The notes beneath the pieces were generated by a model, which saw nothing but the letters and a program-made list of their open reading frames with translations, searched no databases and was not told the origin of the DNA. A stretch of 39,894 nt of DNA. Origin: Kiritimatiellia bacterium. Lineage in GTDB: Bacteria > Verrucomicrobiota > Kiritimatiellia > RFP12 > UBA1067. This document shows, piece by piece, positions 6,382 through 35,764 of this stretch (positions are counted from its first letter, which is position 1; every line of letters starts with the position of its first letter). The position numbers and the translations under genes were made by a program. Location: positions 1-39,894 of the forward strand of contig JBJEWG010000206.1 in the NCBI GenBank assembly GCA_051884935.1. The letters run 5' to 3'.

Positions 6382-6782
6382 AGGAGGCCCCCCTCCTGCG
6401 CGAAGGCGGGGACGCCCATCGCGGGCATGGAGGCCTCTTCGCTCACGCGGTACTCGTTGCCCGCGTTCGCCTCGAAGAGGTACTCGGCGGCGAGGTCGGT
6501 GAGATCGACGGTCTCGTGGCGCTGTTCGGTGACGAGTTCGAGCGCGGGGATGCCCTGCGCCGACGCGGGGAGATTGTCGAGGATGCGCGGGGGCAGGGCG
6601 CCTTCCGCACTGCCGCCGCCGACCTCGGCGGCGCAGCCGGCGGCGCGGCGCACCTCGCTCTGGAGCTGGGCCGTGCGCGGGATGATCGCCCCGAACGCGA
6701 GGAGCGCGCTCAGGATGAGCGCGAAGGCGAAGACGCAGATGGCGAACTCGACCATCGCCTGACCGGACGACCTAGCGTGCAT
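6378..6782 (-). CDS. TadE-like pseudopilin
   Basis: 134 aa. N-terminal class III signal-like motif SSG-QAMVEF followed by a hydrophobic helix. Operon context. Confidence 0.7.
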   Translation of the reverse strand: MHARSSGQAMVEFAICVFAFALILSALLAFGAIIPRTAQLQSEVRRAAGCAAEVGGGSAEGALPPRILDNLPASAQGIPALELVTEQRHETVDLTDLAAEYLFEANAGNEYRVSEEASMPAMGVPAFAQEGGLL

Positions 6783-8193
6783 GGCGCGTGCCTCCTCCGG
6801 ACGTGGGGCCGCCGCCCGTGGGGCGACGGCACTGGGCGCTGTTGAGCGAGAGCCACTGGACGCCGCGCGAGCGGAAGGCGGCGTCGTTCCAGGTGCGGAG
6901 CGTGGCGCAGTAGGCGCAGCCGTCCGAGAAGTGTCCCTCGGCGCAGCCGAGGATGTGGTCGCGGGTGTGGACGACCCAGGCGTCCTCCGCCATGTTGAGG
7001 CGCGCCTCGGATGCGCCGGCGAGCATGATGAGGCGCACGGCGGTGAAGGCGGGGGTGACGAGGGGAAACTCGCCGTCGAGCGTGACGGTGCGCCCGTCGA
7101 TCTCGCCGAAGGGCTTGGCGGCGGCGGTCCACACGTTCGCGCGGTCGGGGACGTTGGGTGTGAAGGGCGAGAGCGTGGTGGTGACGCGGGTGGCGGCGGA
7201 GGCGCCGAAGACGTCGAAGCGGGGCTGCACGTCGCCGCGCAGGGGCAGTCGGTCCTCGCCGTCGATGTGCATCTCGTGCCAGGGTCGCCAGTCGCCGCCG
7301 TAGAGATACCAGGCGTAGGCGAAGGCGTTGGTGAGCACGCCGGAGCGGTCGAAGGCGTCGTCCGTGACGCTGGCGCAGCCGTTGCGCTTCGCCGCGTCGA
7401 GCACGTGTTGGCGGATGCGGGCCGCGTCGCCGGCGGGGTCGAGGTCGCCGAGGGGCGCCTGCACGCGCCGCACGTCCACGGCGAAGAACTCCGGGTTCTG
7501 CGGGGAGGCGACGTCGCCGGGGGGCACCTCGCCCCAGCCCGTGAAACTCTGGAGCAGGTCCATCATCTCGTCGCGCAGGAAGAACCAGCACCAGTCCTCG
7601 CCATCGACGGCGTAGTAGAAGGACTTGTTGTAGAGGGGGTGGCGTGCGTCGGCGCTGTAGTTGTAGAAGCGGGCGTTCTCGCAGCCGGCGTAGACGCCGC
7701 CCTGCACGGCGCCGCGCAGCATCTCGGCGTACTCCTGCGGCTTCTGGGGCCAGCCGGGCGTGGCGGGCACAAAGCGGGCCGCGCCGGAGATGGCGTCGTC
7801 CACGAGGCGCGTCATGCCGGGGTCGGGCCGCATGCCGTTCTTCTGGGCGACGACCTGCGCGGCGTAGAGTCCGGCGAGCGGCCCCGCAAAGGCGAGGCGT
7901 TCCTGAAGGTGCTGGATGCCGGCGGCGAGGTTCGTGGCGGTGGCGGGGTCGTCGGCATAGCGGCAGGCCACATCGACCTGTGCGAGGTTGAGCGCGCCGA
8001 GGGCGTTGAGGGTGATGCCCTGCCAGCGGGCGGCGGCGAGGGCGGCGGCGTCGCCGGCGTTCTGAAGGCGGCCCTTGCCGCGGATCGCGAGGAACACGTC
8101 GGCGTTCACCAGCACCAGGAACAGCAGCCCCAGGAGCATGAACGCGAGCACGAGGACGATCTGCCCGGCCTTTCTATCGGGTGCGGCGGCCAT
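6772..8193 (-). CDS. TadG-like pilus assembly protein (TadE/G-like N-terminal domain)
   Basis: 473 aa. The N-terminus (KAGQIVLVLAFMLLGLLFLVLVNADVFLAIRGKGRLQNAGDAAALAAA) matches the TadG-type motif (hydrophobic helix followed by LQ-A-DAAALA). Operon context. Confidence 0.65.
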   Translation of the reverse strand: MAAAPDRKAGQIVLVLAFMLLGLLFLVLVNADVFLAIRGKGRLQNAGDAAALAAARWQGITLNALGALNLAQVDVACRYADDPATATNLAAGIQHLQERLAFAGPLAGLYAAQVVAQKNGMRPDPGMTRLVDDAISGAARFVPATPGWPQKPQEYAEMLRGAVQGGVYAGCENARFYNYSADARHPLYNKSFYYAVDGEDWCWFFLRDEMMDLLQSFTGWGEVPPGDVASPQNPEFFAVDVRRVQAPLGDLDPAGDAARIRQHVLDAAKRNGCASVTDDAFDRSGVLTNAFAYAWYLYGGDWRPWHEMHIDGEDRLPLRGDVQPRFDVFGASAATRVTTTLSPFTPNVPDRANVWTAAAKPFGEIDGRTVTLDGEFPLVTPAFTAVRLIMLAGASEARLNMAEDAWVVHTRDHILGCAEGHFSDGCAYCATLRTWNDAAFRSRGVQWLSLNSAQCRRPTGGGPTSGGGTRHAR

Positions 8194-8196
8194 CGG

Positions 8197-8745
8197 TCAC
8201 TGGAGGTAGAAGGGGTAGTGGCCCTCGATCTCGGCGACGCTTTCGAGGGAATGAAGCGGGGCCTCGCCGCCGGACTCCTCCGCGAAGGAGGCGCCGTAGA
8301 GGGGGCGGCGCTGCCACACGCGCATCGTGAGCGCGGAGGCGGGGCCGCCGGGTTCGGAACAGGTCCAGCCGAGCTTGTCGCCCTCCCAGAGCTCGAAGTC
8401 GAGGATGCCGCGCACGTCGGCCTCGTATTCGCTTTCGAGGTAGGAGCCCATGCGGCTGACGAGCGCGCCGGTGGAAAGCTCGCCGCCGTCGTCGTCCTGC
8501 GTGAGGCAGCGTCCGGCGGTGGAGAGGGTCGCGACGCGGACGGTCTTTGTGACCATGAAGTCGTTGAAGCCGACGGTGCGGGCGCGGGCGGCGCGGGCGG
8601 CGGCGTAGTCGAGCACGGTGCGGGCGGTGAGGAGGCTGGCGTATTCGTAGACGGCGAAGAAGACGAGGCAGGTGAAGAACAGGACGACGATCGTCTCGAT
8701 CATCGCCTGCCCCGCACGCGCCGTCCTCTTTCCCGCCGCGTTCAC
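8197..8745 (-). CDS. TadE-like pseudopilin
   Basis: 182 aa with a GTG start. N-terminal RAG-QAMIETIVVLFF motif plus a hydrophobic helix. It ends 3 nt upstream of the TadG-like gene. Confidence 0.7.
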   Translation of the reverse strand: MNAAGKRTARAGQAMIETIVVLFFTCLVFFAVYEYASLLTARTVLDYAAARAARARTVGFNDFMVTKTVRVATLSTAGRCLTQDDDGGELSTGALVSRMGSYLESEYEADVRGILDFELWEGDKLGWTCSEPGGPASALTMRVWQRRPLYGASFAEESGGEAPLHSLESVAEIEGHYPFYLQ

Positions 8746-8784
8746 GTCCGCCGCCGCCTTTCGCCTCGCACGAGGCGCGCGAAG

Positions 8785-9006
8785 CTACTCGCCGATCTTC
8801 TTGATGGTGTCGGTGTCGATGCTCTCGACGGCGGACTTGGCGTCCGCGCCCTCGGATTCGGAGATGGCCTCCGTCGCGCCGGCCACCTTCTTGCCCACGC
8901 CGCGGCTGAAGTAGGTGAAGACGGCGATGAGGGAAATGGCGATGAGCGTGACGATGATGATGTACTCGACCATCGTCTGGCCCTTCTTGAACTTTGTGCT
9001 CTTCAT
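8785..9006 (-). CDS. flp: Flp-family type IVc pilin
   Basis: 73 aa. Flp motif KKG-QTMVEY followed by the hydrophobic IIIVTLIAISLIAVF. AAGGAAAGGA Shine-Dalgarno upstream. Confidence 0.8.
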   Translation of the reverse strand: MKSTKFKKGQTMVEYIIIVTLIAISLIAVFTYFSRGVGKKVAGATEAISESEGADAKSAVESIDTDTIKKIGE

Positions 9007-9054
9007 GGTATGCGTCCTTTCCTTGTTGGGTCGATTCGCCTTGCGCGTGGCCGA

Positions 9055-9213
9055 TCAGGGATACTCGCAGGTGACGAGGGTGGTCGTCCGTTCGGCCGAA
9101 CCGCGTGCGGCGCGCGCGAAGATCCGCACCGCGAAGTAGACGCCGAGCAGGGCCACGAACACGAGGATGTATTCGAGCGCGGCCTGTCCGGACCTCCTGT
9201 CGCAGTGTTTCAT
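9055..9213 (-). CDS. Second small Flp-like pilin (first gene of the operon)
   Basis: 52 aa from ATG 9213: MKHCDRRSG-QAALEY-ILVFVALLGVYFAV, a G-X4-EY Flp motif. The longer track ORF (start 9246) would run through the predicted -10 element, so the shorter form is preferred. Confidence 0.6.
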   Translation of the reverse strand: MKHCDRRSGQAALEYILVFVALLGVYFAVRIFARAARGSAERTTTLVTCEYP

Positions 9214-9220
9214 CGGCGGT

Positions 9221-9229
9221 AGTATAGCA
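9221..9229 (-). promoter_or_regulatory. Extended -10 promoter element TGCTATACT for the tad/flp operon
   Basis: The minus strand reads TGCTATACT-ACCGCCG-ATG. Only 7 nt separate the motif from the start codon, which leaves no room for an SD and implies a leaderless transcript. Confidence 0.45.
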
Positions 9230-9473
9230 TAAATCCGCGAGGGCATGGCCGGGATATCGCTTTGGCGGTTATATGTATATATAAGGTCACGCGCGCGCGC
9301 GCGAAGCCCCGCCCCGTGGCGGAGGCTGAGGGGAGGAGCAGAGGAGGGGTCGGGGGAGGGGCGGCGACAGAAAACTTTCCCTCGGGCGACCCTCGGGCGG
9401 TGGGTCGGCGAGAGAACTTTTTTTCAGTTGGATTCTAATAAATTAAACGAACCTAAACTGAAAGGAAAGCAAC

Positions 9474-9887
9474 ATGAAGAACCAATCCCTCGCAACGCGC
9501 CTTGACTTCTATGCCAAGGTCTACGACCTCCGCCAATCCTACGCCAAAAAGCGCGCCCCATTCTGGGCCAACGCCGTCCGTCTAGATGACTGCCTCGAAA
9601 CCGAAGACGGCAGCATTACCGAAAACGCACTTTTGAGCGACAATGGAATTTGCGCGCAGAAGATTCGCACCATGGGCGAAATGGAACCGTGGCAAGTCGA
9701 ATTTGGCCGCGTGATGGCCACTTTAACCCCGACTGAACGCCGCGTCGTTGAAGCGCTCGATCAGGATACGCGCCCGACGGCGGTTGCGCGAATCACGGGC
9801 ATAAACCGCCGACAGGTCTATCGCGTACTGAATTCTTTGCGTAAACTTTTGAAAAATTGTCACACTTTACGCAATTTCTGCGAATGA
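9474..9887 (+). CDS. Small HTH protein resembling sigma-70 region 4 / LuxR-type HTH
   Basis: 137 aa. The C-terminal LTPTERRVVEALDQDTRPTAVARITGINRRQVYRVLNSLRKLL resembles ECF-sigma region 4. AAAGGAAAG SD upstream. Visibly lower GC than the surroundings. Confidence 0.55.
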   Translation: MKNQSLATRLDFYAKVYDLRQSYAKKRAPFWANAVRLDDCLETEDGSITENALLSDNGICAQKIRTMGEMEPWQVEFGRVMATLTPTERRVVEALDQDTRPTAVARITGINRRQVYRVLNSLRKLLKNCHTLRNFCE

Positions 9888-9899
9888 TATATGGGTCGA

Positions 9900-9933
9900 G
9901 GGAGATGCTGGCACCGAGTGGTGCCAGTCTCCC
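9900..9933 (+). promoter_or_regulatory. Strong intercistronic stem-loop between the HTH gene and the HU-like gene
   Basis: GGGAGA-tg-CTGGCAC-CGAGTG-GTGCCAG-TCTCCC gives 13 paired positions and no U-tail. It lies 13 nt after the stop of the upstream gene and 30 nt before ATG 9963. Confidence 0.5.
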
Positions 9934-9962
9934 GAGGCGAATATAAACAAGGAGGCCAAGAT

Positions 9963-10688
9963 ATGGCATCAGAAATAAATCAACTCAGGTACCGCGTGTA
10001 CCCATCCCGAAATCCCGTGACCGGCGGCGCGATTCTGCGCCCGGTAGTCACCCAACGGACCACGATGAACCTACGGCAACTCGTAGCATATGCGAAGACC
10101 GCCGGATTCGTCCGCGGCCAGCAGAGGGACCTCGAAGGTCTCCTCGGCGGCTTCATCGAGGCGATGCAGGACCGCGCGAAAGCCGGTTGCTCGATCAACA
10201 TCAACGGCTGGTTCGTCATCTCGGGCCAGCTCAAAGGCACAGTCGGCGAGGATCGTAAACTCACGTCCGCGAACGACTACCACGTCACGATCTCGGCCTC
10301 CAAGGACCTGAAGGTCGATATTTCGAACTTCAGCTGGTCGCGCGTGGATGACGATGTGCCGATCGCAAAGATCGAGCGACTCTGTTCGACGAATGGCACT
10401 CAGGGCGAAATCATTCGGATGCAGGAGTTCGTCGCAATCGGACGAAACTTCTCGTTCAATACCACGTGGGGTGACCGAATCATCGTGAGCTGGACGGAGG
10501 ACGAGAACGAGAAGTCGGCTGATCTGACGCCGAGTTCAAAGGGCTTGACCTATCTGCACTTCGACTGGCCGGAGGCGCTTGAGAGCGTCCCGACCGGGAC
10601 CGAGCTCACGTTCACCTTCCGTCTGCACGTCGAGGAGGGCGCGCCCGAACAGGTCTGCACGAAGACCGCGAAGCTGGTGGCGAAGTAG
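9963..10688 (+). CDS. HU-like (Bacteroidota HU-HIG type) DNA-binding domain protein with C-terminal beta-rich extension
   Basis: ATG 9963 is preceded by AAGGAGG at 7-nt spacing. The N-terminal YRVYPSRNPVTGGAILRPVVTQRTTMNLRQLVAYAKTAGFVRGQQRDLEGLLGGFIEAMQDRAKAGCSININGWFVISGQLKG resembles the HU-HIG family from memory. The C-terminal half resembles the Ig-like domain often fused to it (DUF4469-like). Not verified by search. Confidence 0.6.
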   Translation: MASEINQLRYRVYPSRNPVTGGAILRPVVTQRTTMNLRQLVAYAKTAGFVRGQQRDLEGLLGGFIEAMQDRAKAGCSININGWFVISGQLKGTVGEDRKLTSANDYHVTISASKDLKVDISNFSWSRVDDDVPIAKIERLCSTNGTQGEIIRMQEFVAIGRNFSFNTTWGDRIIVSWTEDENEKSADLTPSSKGLTYLHFDWPEALESVPTGTELTFTFRLHVEEGAPEQVCTKTAKLVAK

Positions 10689-10718
10689 TAGCCGGGCGGC
10701 GCGTAATCCGCGCCTCGC

Positions 10719-10760
10719 GGGGGCGGGTGGCCGCTGGGCCGCCCGCCCCCGTTTTCATTT
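10719..10760 (+). terminator. Rho-independent terminator
   Basis: 14-bp stem GGGGGCGGGTGGCC / GGCCGCCCGCCCCC with one U-G pair and loop GCTG, followed by GTTTTCATTT. Confidence 0.6.
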
Positions 10761-11171
10761 AACTCCGAGCGTTTGCAAATGGCTCCGCTAACGCTCCGCC
10801 TTGGGCTTCACGCTTCTTCAACGATTTCCTTTTACGAGCAAAGGAGAGAGAAGAGAATAGAAGATATAGAGAGGAGATGCTCATAACGGCGTCTCAGCCT
10901 TGCGCACGACCATAAGTGTGGCAACCAGCGTGGCTGAAGCCACGCGCCCCGATACCGCGCCTTACGCGCGCGCCATCTGAAACCAAAAACGCACAACAGA
11001 AAGGCCTGCCCTTCGCGTGTGACTTTAGTATAGACAGCGAGGCAGTGCTCTTTTAACGGTTGGGCCGTGCATTCCTTCTATGGAAGAAGATGTTTAGATG
11101 GAACGAGCCGTTGAAGAAGCGCGAAGCCTGAGGCGGAGCGTTAGCGGAGCCATTTGCAAACGTTCGGAGTT
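10761..11171. repeat. Inverted-repeat-bounded non-coding element, copy 1 (411 bp)
   Basis: Arms 10761-10823 and 11109-11171 are reverse complements with 59 of 63 positions matching. There is no credible ORF inside. A related element lies at 20609-21130. Confidence 0.7.
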
Positions 11172-11200: not shown

Positions 11201-11230
11201 TTGGCAGGGAGGGGTGGGATGTGGTATACT
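11201..11230 (+). promoter_or_regulatory. metK promoter (TTGGCA-N18-TATACT with TG extension)
   Basis: -35-like TTGGCA at 11201-11206. TGTGGTATACT at 11220-11230, the same extended -10 motif seen upstream of other genes in the window. Confidence 0.5.
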
Positions 11231-11236
11231 GGAGTG

Positions 11237-11355
11237 CATCGAAGCATCAGGAAGCGGGCGCACAGTGCGGCCGTGCCAACCGAGCGGAAACCGCCACGGT
11301 GGATAGGGGATCAGCCCCGGATGCGCTTCGCAAGTACGAAGAAAGAGAGAAGAAC
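11237..11355 (+). promoter_or_regulatory. Structured 5' leader of metK; candidate SAM-responsive riboswitch (class unassigned)
   Basis: Closing helix CGAAGCAUC (11240-11248) / GAUGC-GC-UUCG (11320-11330). Internal hairpins include GCGG-AAA-CCGC and GGGG-AUCAG-CCCC. GUGCCAA and GCGGAAAC recall the 3' half of SAM-I, but the canonical SAM-I 5' half is not seen. Confidence 0.3.
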
Positions 11356-12537
11356 ATGGCCAAACATGCCGAACGGCACGTTTTCACCTCCGAGTCGGTC
11401 TCGGAGGGGCATCCCGACAAGGTCGCGGACCAGATATCCGACGCAATCCTCGACGCCTGCATGAAGGGCGATCCGAACGCCCATGTGGGGTGTGAGACGA
11501 TGGTGGGGCCGAACCTCGTGGTGAACATGGGCGAGATCACCGCCCGGGGCTACGAGAAGATCAATCCGCAGGAGATCGCGCGGGCGGTGGTGAAGGAGAT
11601 CGGCTACGACCGTCCCGAGGAGGGCTTCAGCTGGAACACGTTCAACTACGTGAGCGCGCTGCACGGGCAGAGCCCCGACATCGCGCAGGGGGTGAACCGC
11701 GCGAAGGCCGAGAAGCAGGGGGCGGGCGACCAGGGGATGATGTTCGGGTACGCGACGAACGAGACGAAGTCCCTGATGCCGGCGCCGATCGTCTACTCGC
11801 ACGAGCTGCTGCGCGTCTTCACGAAGCTGCGCAAGTCGGGGGAGGCGGGGTATCTGCGGCCGGACTCGAAGTGCCAGCTCTCGGTGGCCTACGAGGATGG
11901 GCGGCCGGTGTCGATCGAGACGGTGGTGCTGTCGCACCAGACGACCGAGGAGGGGGCCCGGCGGGCGTGCTACGCGCAGATGGAGGAGATCGCGCGCGAC
12001 TTCCTCGCGGGCACGGGGCTGATCACGGCGCGGACGAAGTTCTACGTCAACCCCACGGGCAAGTTCGTGGTGGGGGGGCCGACGGGCGACAGCGGCCTCA
12101 CGGGACGCAAGATCATCGTGGACACCTACGGCGGCATGGCGGCGCACGGCGGCGGCGCGTTCAGCGGCAAGGACCCGTCGAAGGTGGACCGCAGCGCGGC
12201 CTACTACGCACGCTACGCGGCGAAGAACATCGTCGCGGCGGGGTTCGCCGACCGCTGCCAGATACAGGTGGCGTACGCGATCGGCGTGGACCGGCCGGTC
12301 TCCGTGTGCGTGAAGACGTTCGGCACGAACCACGGCGTGACGAACGAGCAGCTTGAGCGGGTGATCCTCGCGGGCAAGGTGTTCGACTTCCGCCCCTACG
12401 CGCTCATCAAGGACCTTGGGCTCGCGAAGCCGAAGGGGTGGAGCTACCGCGAGACGGCCAACTACGGGCACTTCGGCCGCGCCGGGTTCCCGTGGGAGAA
12501 GACCGACCGGGTGGCCGCGCTCAAAGCCGCGCTGTAA
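11356..12537 (+). CDS. metK: S-adenosylmethionine synthetase
   Basis: 393 aa from ATG 11356 ([34 protein letters not shown]). Diagnostic MetK motifs are present: [59 protein letters not shown]. The track ORF start at 11098 lies inside the repeat element and is rejected. Confidence 0.95.
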
Positions 12538-20413: not shown

Positions 20414-20454
20414 CGCACATGGCCCGTGGAGTGTGTCATTCTGACACACCGACT

Positions 20455-20593
20455 CCGAGTTGTGCCGATGAGCGACCCCGAGTTATGCCGATGACCGACC
20501 CCGAGTTATGCCGATGAGCCGACCCGAGTTATGCCGATGAGCGACCCCGAGTTATGCCGATGACCAACCCCGAGTTATGCCGATGACTCGACC
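20455..20593. repeat. Six tandem copies of a 23-bp repeat (CCGAGTTATGCCGATGAsCGAcC)
   Basis: CCGAGTT recurs at 20455, 20478, 20501, 20524, 20547 and 20570, an exact 23-bp period. The units are contiguous with no unique spacers. Confidence 0.9.
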
Positions 20594-20608
20594 TCGACCG
20601 ATTTGAAG

Positions 20609-21130
20609 ACTCCGAGCGTTTGCAAAGGGCGGTTCTAACGAACCGCCTGAGGCTTCGCAACGCCACAACGACATTTATTTGACAAAACAATGGCCAAATC
20701 CACTCCTTATAATGGAGAATCGGCCTAATTCCTTATAATAAGAGGCAAACACATTCCTTATAGTAGGAGGCTGGCCCGTTCCTCATAATAGGGGGCTGGC
20801 TCGCTCCTTATAATAGAGGATTGGCTCATTCTTTCTAATAAAGGCTGCCTATACCTTATATATGCCAGCGAATACCCAGCGGCATAGTAGGGAATTGGCC
20901 TTTCCTTATATATATAGGCAGATGGCCAATAGCGGCGGACTTTCGTCCGCCGGACAGAACAACACATAAAACCCGTTTCACGCCCCGGCGTCGAAGACGC
21001 CGACCAAAGGCTTAACCCGATTCAGCCAGTCAACCCAAGACCAAACCCCATTTAAGTCCAATAAAAGTCGTTGAGGAGGCGCAAAGCATCAGGCGGTTCG
21101 TTAGAACCGCCCTTTGCAAACGCTCGGAGT
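20609..21130. repeat. Inverted-repeat-bounded non-coding element, copy 2 (522 bp)
   Basis: Arms 20609-20672 and 21067-21130 are reverse complements with 58 of 64 positions matching, and the outer 42 nt are perfect. The arms share ordered sequence blocks with copy 1. The interior is AT-rich and non-coding. Confidence 0.7.
20692..20930. repeat. About 9 phased 25-bp units (GGCY-N4-6-TCCTTATAATAGGAGG-like) inside element copy 2
   Basis: CCTTATA-like cores occur at 20705, 20731, 20756, 20781, 20806, 20831, 20854, a degenerate one near 20880, and 20904. Spacing is 23-26 bp. Confidence 0.75.
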
Positions 21131-21156
21131 TTTCATTCTCCCGGAAGCCGGCCGCC

Positions 21157-34103: not shown

Positions 34104-34179
34104 TGGTGGAGAAGAAGAGATTCGAACTCTCGACCCCCACGTTGCGAACGTGATGCTCTACCAACTGAGCTACTTCCCC
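34104..34179 (-). tRNA. tRNA-Ala (anticodon CGC), CCA encoded
   Basis: The reverse complement reads GGGGAAGTAGCTCAGTTGGTAGAGCATCACGTTCGCAACGTGGGGGTCGAGAGTTCGAATCTCTTCTTCTCCACCA. It folds as a cloverleaf with 7/4/5/5-bp stems, anticodon loop TTCGCAA, the G3:U70 alanine identity pair and a GTTCGAATC T-loop. Confidence 0.92.
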
Positions 34180-35334: not shown

Positions 35335-35654
35335 AAGGGATTCCGCACCACAACACTCCAAACGCCCTCGGCGAACGAGGGAAAGTTGTACAATCAAGCG
35401 GGTCAATTCGGAAAGGCAAGGAGTCGGGATGGAGAGCGGAGGCGAAACGGAAGAAGGACAGGAACCGCAAGAGGCGGGAGAAGAGGAAAAGGAACGCCCT
35501 CTGGGGGGTGGCGCGAACAGGGGGGCGGGGATGACCGTCACCTACCGAATGGCCCGTCTCGTCGTCGAGGAGCGGCTCTCGCCCCACGATGCCATATGCT
35601 ACATGAGGAAGGACTGCCGGGACGGCGCAATCTCCCTTGTGATTTCGACTTCAC

Positions 35655-35764
35655 TTGCGCAAGTGATTGAATTCTCTTGCGCAAGCAACGGAATTCTCTT
35701 GCGCAAGCGGGGAAATTCAGTTGCGCAACCAAATCCATTCTCTTGCGCAAGAGAATCCCAGATC
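35655..35764. repeat. Five exactly phased 22-bp units with palindromic core TTGCGCAA; the last unit is a perfect 20-bp palindrome
   Basis: TTGCGCAA occurs at 35655, 35677, 35699, 35721 and 35743. The unit consensus is GAATTCTC-TTGCGCAA-G. ATTCTCTTGCGCAAGAGAAT at 35737-35756 is perfectly palindromic. Confidence 0.9.

Follow-up and report, generated by a model that had tools for sequence, protein, structure and literature searches.

The DNA analysed here, called the window throughout, is the whole 39,894-bp contig JBJEWG010000206.1 of a Kiritimatiellia metagenome-assembled genome (MAG; assembly GCA_051884935.1). Its likely genes, which we picked by codon-position GC and then scanned with Pfam, include a Tad pilus operon, metK, namZ, a carbohydrate kinase, glycoside hydrolases and transporters. 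Two of its intergenic regions each hold an element in which two long terminal inverted repeats (TIRs, hereafter arms) enclose a non-coding interior. Copy 1 (411 bp), flanked by a terminator on one side and the metK promoter on the other, is preceded by a gene pair for a helix-turn-helix (HTH) protein of 137 aa (9474-9887) and a BVU_2165-like protein of 241 aa (9963-10688), and copy 2 (532 bp) lies between convergent 3' ends; no gene is interrupted by either element. The parts of the two elements and the features that flank them are, in the order of their coordinates:

10717..10752, plus strand: intrinsic terminator-like hairpin of the upstream gene with a T-rich tail, ending 8 nt before copy 1
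10761..10823, no strand: left arm of copy 1, a 63-nt terminal inverted repeat with 94% complementarity to 11109-11171; nhmmer E 3e-21
10824..11108, no strand: copy 1 interior, 285 nt, non-coding, ~53% GC
~10842-10877: polypurine tract in the copy 1 interior
10928-10945: hairpin in the copy 1 interior
11027..11056, minus strand (leftward): weak sigma-70-like site within copy 1, TTAAAA-18-TATACT, 9/12, a consensus match only
11109..11171, no strand: copy 1 right arm, from the inverted-repeat search, the terminal 17-mer and nhmmer
11201-11230, plus strand: metK promoter-like site
11239-11357, plus strand: SAM-I/IV riboswitch before metK, 42.9 bits vs a gathering score of 41.1
20414..21156, no strand: intergenic gap of 743 bp between convergent genes, holding a switch of GC skew, a 23-bp array and copy 2
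20448..20597, plus strand: 23-bp tandem array, 6.5 units of ACCGACCCCGAGTTATGCCGATG, directly adjoining the copy 2 left arm
20604..20683, no strand: copy 2 left arm, 80 nt, 89% complementary to 21056-21135; nhmmer
20684..21055, no strand: copy 2 interior, 372 nt, 47-49% GC, non-coding
20704..20847, plus strand: array of imperfect palindromes inside copy 2, TCCTTATAATAGGAGG-like, 25-bp spacing; TRF period 25, 3.5-3.8 copies
20933..20952, no strand: perfect 8-bp hairpin CGGCGGAC-TTTC-GTCCGCCG in the copy 2 interior
21056..21135, no strand: copy 2 right arm, from the inverted-repeat search and nhmmer

A preliminary description of positions 10761-11171, prepared from the letters of the window, had set out the anatomy of copy 1, and our analysis reproduces it: two inverted 63-nt arms that are 94% complementary lie 285 nt apart, the interior has no credible open reading frame (ORF; none is longer than 54 aa) and holds the hairpin as well as a purine-rich left side, and the element is framed by the terminator on one side and by the metK promoter-like site from 11201 on the other. 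The same description had placed a second element at 20609-21130; this element exists but is longer than was claimed, extending from 20604 to 21135 with 80-nt arms. The TCCTTATAATAGGAGG-like units in its interior begin at 20730, 20755, 20780 and 20805, with weaker units flanking them on both sides. By eye, the unit of the neighbouring 23-bp array and the arm terminus have GAC(C/T)CCGAG..TT(A)TGC in common, and the array may be part of the copy 2 element. Scans of viral sequences for the 23-bp unit and the 25-bp repeat returned chance singletons only. As a separate observation, a partial 23-bp unit (CCGATGAGCCGACCCGAGT) occupies positions 1-22, at the contig end, of a locus from a distant Kiritimatiellia relative (L037), ~300 bp upstream of a BVU_2165-like paralogue.

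Relatedness of the four arms

A terminal 17-mer, CTCCGAGCGTTTGCAAA, is found at four sites in the window when up to 3 mismatches are allowed, and these sites are exactly the four arm ends. As the expected number is 0.09 and 0 of 100 shuffles reached four, the earlier proposal of a repeat family, as opposed to a one-off palindrome, is borne out. An nhmmer profile of the four arms detected the four known arms only, in the window (E 3e-21 to 6e-24) as well as in a run on all 71 fetched loci plus the window. Across the four arms 43 of the 81 compared columns are invariant, and common to all of them is an 18-nt terminus, ACTCCGA(G/A)CGTTTGCAAA, which contains the palindrome TTTGCAAA and is followed by the conserved blocks GGC....CTAACG..CCGCCT. 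Arm identity amounts to 94% within copy 1 and about 89-90% within copy 2, compared to 74-79% between the copies, and at nine columns inside the arms the two arms of a copy agree with each other but not with those of the other copy. Each copy 2 arm holds a perfect local palindrome, GGCGGTTC-TAAC-GAACCGCC (20628-20647 in the left arm), which results from a block of concerted differences; the matching block in copy 1 is a direct repeat, GCTCCGC-TAAC-GCTCCGCC.

The similarity of the arms between the two loci extends over at least 45 nt and weakens toward the inner arm ends, and no similarity was detectable between the copy 1 and copy 2 interiors. Because the arms are alike over a long stretch at two loci and the interiors are unrelated, the ends appear to have spread as units rather than to represent independent binding sites, and the matched ends of each copy are what would be expected of two subfamilies in which both ends serve one cognate protein. 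On the strength of these alignments, the arms at the two loci are of common descent.

The interiors are foreign-looking in composition, with a GC content of 47-53% compared to 68% for the contig. The longest ORF of copy 2 (69 aa) has 0 homologues by HMMER among 1.84 billion representative proteins, and the concatenated ORF peptides of the four arms, with which we searched for spurious gene calls over related arms, gave nothing at E up to 10. Rfam searches of both elements likewise gave nothing credible, whether gathering thresholds or E values up to 10 were applied.

Occurrence in relatives and in an independent assembly

The homologues of its MetK place the host in Kiritimatiellia. For the metK locus we compared the window with three groups of relatives (L027-L032, L033 and L071) whose MetK is 87-89% identical to that of the window, the best match among Kiritimatiellia homologues being 89% identical. 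Homology of all three groups with the window starts only at the metK promoter/riboswitch. In L027-L033 and L071 the promoter and riboswitch are kept, no element is present upstream of metK, and the spacer upstream of metK measures 141-265 bp versus 667 bp here. The riboswitch leader DNA before metK is conserved in all three groups while the genes further upstream are different in every lineage, which gives the metK 5' flank the look of a site of repeated rearrangement. Judged from these loci, the element is specific to this lineage. Moreover, no arm was found beside the BVU_2165-like homologues in 14 loci (L034-L047), which argues that the element is not part of the BVU_2165-like gene module, and the loci of the relatives contain no comparable long inverted repeats.

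A Logan contig assembled from SRR10097268 is 100% identical to window positions 9511-10799 (1,289 bp) and stops 39 nt into the copy 1 left arm. This match demonstrates that the junction of gene, terminator and arm is not an artefact of a single assembly, and the end of the contig inside the arm is of the kind that a repeat-induced assembly break would give.

Non-autonomous mobile cassettes as the favoured interpretation

Our favoured interpretation, held tentatively and at a little under an even chance, is that both elements belong to an undescribed, lineage-restricted family of non-autonomous long-TIR cassettes that would be mobilised in trans, in the manner of MITEs (miniature inverted-repeat transposable elements), mobile insertion cassettes (MICs) or TIMEs (inverted-repeat miniature elements derived from Tn3). 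In such a scheme, the two long TIRs of each element would enclose unrelated lower-GC non-coding DNA as cargo, and the outer ~45 nt of the arm (ACTCCGA(G/A)CGTTTGCAAA plus GGC....CTAACG..CCGCCT) would be the target of a trans-acting transposase or recombinase that may be encoded elsewhere in the genome or may since have been lost, with the two copies standing for two subfamilies that would each possess their own matched pair of ends. The foreign-looking composition, the intergenic location and the absence in relatives fit with a mobile origin, and there is no ORF, Rfam family or structured interior to suggest another function. From this anatomy and distribution we infer mobility, an enzyme acting in trans and the mechanism outlined above; the elements are most likely relics of a new low-copy, transposase-less mobile-element family.

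Both copies display terminal inverted repeats around a short element that has no transposase gene, as MITEs do, and they carry the same ends around different cargo, a feature of MIC/TIME-like mosaic cassettes. Bacterial MITEs (e.g. Correia/CREE or IS-derived ones) resemble the present elements in being small, intergenic, non-coding, TIR-bounded and AT-richer than the host, in having no transposase of their own, and in the long hairpin that could form upon transcription. Unlike MITEs, which measure about 30-300 bp by the definition quoted in PMC4133298, the elements described here are 411 and 532 bp long, have arms of 63-80 nt and unrelated interiors, were seen in two copies and with no flanking direct repeat, and their arms match no known insertion sequence (IS) in the plasmid and phage records searched. 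Conversely, MIC/TIME cassettes share with them the same ends around different cargo, a usually single or low copy number and a general lack of direct repeats; most TIMEs in databases are without flanking direct repeats, usually single-copy and able to form mosaics with different cargo, and TIMEs are mobilised in trans (PMC4133298). The departures from a textbook MITE are thus the missing duplication, the low visible copy number, the differing cargo and the 63-80 nt arms, and the first three of these have precedent in TIMEs and mobile insertion cassettes. The ends of TIMEs can be recognised as Tn3-family inverted repeats of ~38 bp, whereas the present arms could be assigned to no known family and have no known cognate transposase. 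As neither a target-site duplication nor a partner transposase was found, we have not filed the elements as strict MITEs.

Several observations weigh against mobile cassettes. First, no target-site duplication of at least 3 bp fits both copies at any boundary offset, in agreement with the preliminary description; the nearest to one is TTTCATTT / TTTCTATT (6/8) around copy 1. Such duplications are frequent among elements of this class, though not a universal feature. Second, two copies are visible in 39.9 kb and the term 'multicopy' is therefore unproven. Third, the likely window genes include no transposase or recombinase Pfam domain, as had been noted before, and neither the Pfam scan of the window nor BLASTN of plasmid and phage records with both elements as queries (word 11), which gave no match, revealed ends related to an autonomous IS or transposon. 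Fourth, exact-pattern scans for the arm returned 0 matches for two patterns in IMG/VR, 3 chance matches in GTDB species genomes (none of them arm-like by the nhmmer profile, and one, L003, falling in coding sequence) and 23 single matches in JGI metagenomes that have neither downstream similarity nor an inverted partner. Fifth, arms of 63-80 nt exceed most bacterial TIRs in length. Finally, the gene upstream of metK is different in every relative, such that there is no clean empty site. The search for further copies, an autonomous partner and empty sites that the preliminary description had proposed thus recovered the four known arms only (nhmmer, 71 loci), with no partner and no clean empty site, and its statement that the arm sequence is not recognisable as a described element holds here too, no family having been matched.

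Another class of repeats that invites comparison is that of the enterobacterial repetitive intergenic consensus (ERIC/IRU) repeats, which have imperfect palindromic arms and variable internal inserts and reside in intergenic transcribed regions. ERICs differ from the present elements in being ~127 bp long, high-copy and conserved across a bacterial family, and the nhmmer profile (71 loci and window) recovered no version of the present arms that was short and free of an insert. On balance, we regard the elements as a real, previously undescribed repeat family, most likely of an ordinary kind, i.e. a non-autonomous TIR cassette, with atypical features. Among the three readings that had been left open at the outset, a transposon is the best supported, an invertible segment is weaker and a structured RNA is disfavoured, as discussed in the following.

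Invertible segments as a weaker reading

An unlikely alternative to mobile cassettes is that the elements are invertons, in which a recombinase encoded elsewhere would flip the 285-nt and 372-nt interiors and thereby switch internal promoters. Indeed, long inverted repeats surround non-coding segments of inverton-typical size, weak minus-strand promoter-like sites are present in both interiors (11056 to 11027 and 20837 to 20810), and a window without a recombinase is not decisive on this point because global invertases can act in trans. Promoter invertons such as the B. fragilis Mpi-type, fimS and hin are likewise non-coding segments of a few hundred bp between inverted repeats, with a recombinase gene that may lie at a great distance. 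Read as its reverse complement, GCAAACG(C/T)TCGG, the arm terminus agrees with the Mpi site of B. fragilis, ARACGTWCGT, at 8-9 of 10 positions, which we take to be a lead and not a test.

On the other hand, known inverton sites are short inverted repeats of roughly 10-35 bp that drive an adjacent gene, and the arms of 63-80 nt are much longer than those of characterised non-coding invertons. Copy 2 faces only the 3' ends of two convergent genes and would provide a switchable promoter without a gene to drive, and metK is already served by a promoter and a riboswitch that lie outside copy 1. Moreover, the arm similarity of at least 45 nt between the loci goes well beyond a recombinase core site and points to duplicated ends, and no orientation variant was seen, the sole other assembly (the Logan contig, L072) ending inside the arm.

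A switch of GC skew at copy 2 and a possible host function

The top-strand GC skew of the window is +0.10 over 1-20447 and -0.086 over 21136-end, with the maximum of the cumulative G-C curve at 20435. Minus-strand genes have a skew of +0.04 to +0.22 to the left of copy 2 and of -0.03 to -0.16 to the right, and plus-strand genes up to 20413 are still left-side-like, so the gene skews on both sides place the switch within 20414-21156. All 10 GGGNAGGG motifs of the window are directed to this gap (7 vs 0 on the left, 0 vs 3 on the right); ~80% of them are expected to face it from skew alone, and the probability of 10/10 is ~0.1. A search of the window for dif-like sites found none. The skew pattern, read from a single 40-kb contig, resembles that of a replication terminus and could reflect one, but a repeat-mediated inversion or a mis-join at the repeat would look identical. 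Given two elements and ~25 intergenic gaps, we estimate the chance of copy 2 falling at the switch at roughly 1-in-12.

These features are relevant to a second alternative, which we consider less likely again than invertons: a host-encoded palindromic protein-binding module that is not a transposon, whose arms would be paired binding sites in opposite orientation for a lineage-specific DNA-binding protein, and that would, in its extreme version, be a fork trap or terminus-organising site. In keeping with such a module, the skew switch falls in the gap that holds the 23-bp array and copy 2, the genes converge there, all GGGNAGGG motifs point to the copy 2 gap, the 23-bp and 25-bp repeat arrays resemble protein-binding sites, and copy 1 comes directly after the genes for the HTH and BVU_2165-like putative DNA-binding proteins. 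Against it, copy 1 lies 10 kb from the skew switch, the position of copy 2 has the 1-in-12 chance given above, the orientation bias of these G-rich motifs is mostly expected from GC skew, the window has no dif-like site, and an inversion at the repeat or an assembly join would equally well give a switch at this place. In addition, neither any of the relatives examined nor the GTDB species genomes contain the arms, and the neighbouring gene pair is found in relatives without arms.

The precedent for the extreme version is B. subtilis, whose 32-bp Ter sites terI and terII lie about 0.1 kb apart in inverted orientation beside rtp (PMC13220808). The likeness consists of an oppositely oriented pair of sites at a skew switch in the case of copy 2 and of a DNA-binding protein gene adjoining the pair in the case of copy 1; by contrast, the arms described here are 63-80 nt long, lie 285-372 nt apart around repeat-rich interiors and lack conservation in relatives, and neither an RTP nor a Tus homologue was found. 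By analogy, copy 2 and the 23-bp array would mark the terminus, and the HTH protein, the BVU_2165-like protein or another Kiritimatiellia-specific protein would be candidate binders. That the arms serve a chromosome-terminus system specific to this lineage, as paired, oppositely oriented sites of a Ter-like fork trap or of a module that organises the terminus, is nevertheless highly improbable, on the grounds that they are not conserved in relatives and that copy 1 is 10 kb away.

Structured RNA and assembly artefact as improbable readings

A further alternative, in which a helix of 63-80 bp would close a structured RNA of about 400-530 nt, ranks lower still. The RNA fold of the entire copy 1 is very stable (-214.6 kcal/mol, z = -13.9) and, in an alignment read by eye, 3 of the 4 copy 1 arm mismatches would be G-U pairs in a plus-strand RNA. 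However, the fold of the copy 1 interior is not distinguishable from shuffles (z = -1.65 on the plus and -1.85 on the minus strand), so the stability of the whole is due to the arms alone. The interiors of the two copies are unrelated, the copy 2 arm mismatches include several pair-breaking transversions, and no Rfam match was obtained even with the permissive threshold. The end of a strong terminator is separated from the left arm by 8 nt, and outside the arms no promoter-like site was found on either strand except the metK promoter, which faces away. A near-perfect 63-bp RNA duplex would also be a substrate of RNase III.

Least credible of all is an assembly artefact, whether a chimera formed by fold-back or a wrong join at a repeat. 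In its favour, the window is a whole MAG contig of 39,894 bp and copy 2 sits where the skew switches. Against it, the complementarity of the arms is imperfect (94% and 89%) and the arms fall into two distinct variants at two loci, each consistent within itself, the independent Logan assembly has the copy 1 left-arm junction at 100% identity, and the GC content is alike on either side of copy 2.

Neighbouring genes and other features of the window

The gene before copy 1 had been described as HU-like. This assignment is plausible on structural grounds, the AlphaFold model of the 241-aa protein (pLDDT 90.6) having as its best match 4fmr, i.e. BVU_2165 of Bacteroides, deposited as a 'putative bacterial DNA binding protein'; it is not shown by the Pfam, PHROG and PDB sequence searches, which returned no match. 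The family of this protein is limited to Kiritimatiellia, with several paralogues per MAG that are mainly on short contigs. PADLOC gave nothing significant for the neighbouring proteins, and exact look-ups of a 265-aa ORF, MetK and MFS proteins of the window found no record.

A low-GC island (46-64% GC), which holds the HTH and BVU_2165-like genes, extends over ~9250-10760, between the Flp pilin gene and copy 1, and no att-like direct repeats were found around 9250-11171. The 5' leader of the BVU_2165-like gene has a hairpin, GGCACCGAGTGGTGCC, at 9910-9925, and hairpins of the form GGC(A/G)CCG.GTGGTG(C/T)C are at the equivalent position in L034 (~1110-1125) and L037 (~263-278); the hairpin may be a regulatory leader structure. 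A similarly arranged gene pair (151 aa + 245 aa) lies beside toxin-antitoxin, Fic and AAA_14 genes in L043-L047. Two of these loci, contigs from different samples of a relative, also reveal a natural large inversion polymorphism (L043 12681-15259 vs L045 7998-10576), the inverted segment of which holds four paralogous PEP-CTERM-type genes and is bounded by inverted repeats of 383-787 nt.

Elsewhere in the window, a third tandem array at 35650-35751 comprises ~4.6 copies of a 22-bp unit, TTCTCTTGCGCAAGCAACGGAA, with the palindrome TTGCGCAA in every unit. It is intergenic and near a tRNA gene (34107-34179, minus strand), and to judge from its units looks like a row of operator sites. Lastly, an 813-aa plus-strand ORF (6781-9222) is a shadow ORF opposite the minus-strand Tad pilus genes (TadE/TadG-like, Flp). 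It is not PheT; Pfam gave no match for it, and it shares no similarity with the PheT gene that relatives have at the analogous position.

Implications

Repeats of this type break assemblies, as illustrated by the Logan contig that ends in an arm, and can mediate inversions. Copy 2, lying where the skew switches, would mark either a terminus-associated element or a rearrangement or assembly breakpoint. A literature search by phylum name found no papers on inverted repeats in Kiritimatiellia. If the interpretation as non-autonomous mobile cassettes is true, long-TIR cassettes with unrelated non-coding cargo and no target duplication would point to an unidentified mobilising enzyme, and the two elements would give Kiritimatiellia, a little-studied phylum of the Planctomycetes-Verrucomicrobia-Chlamydiae (PVC) group, its first described family of repeats or mobile elements.

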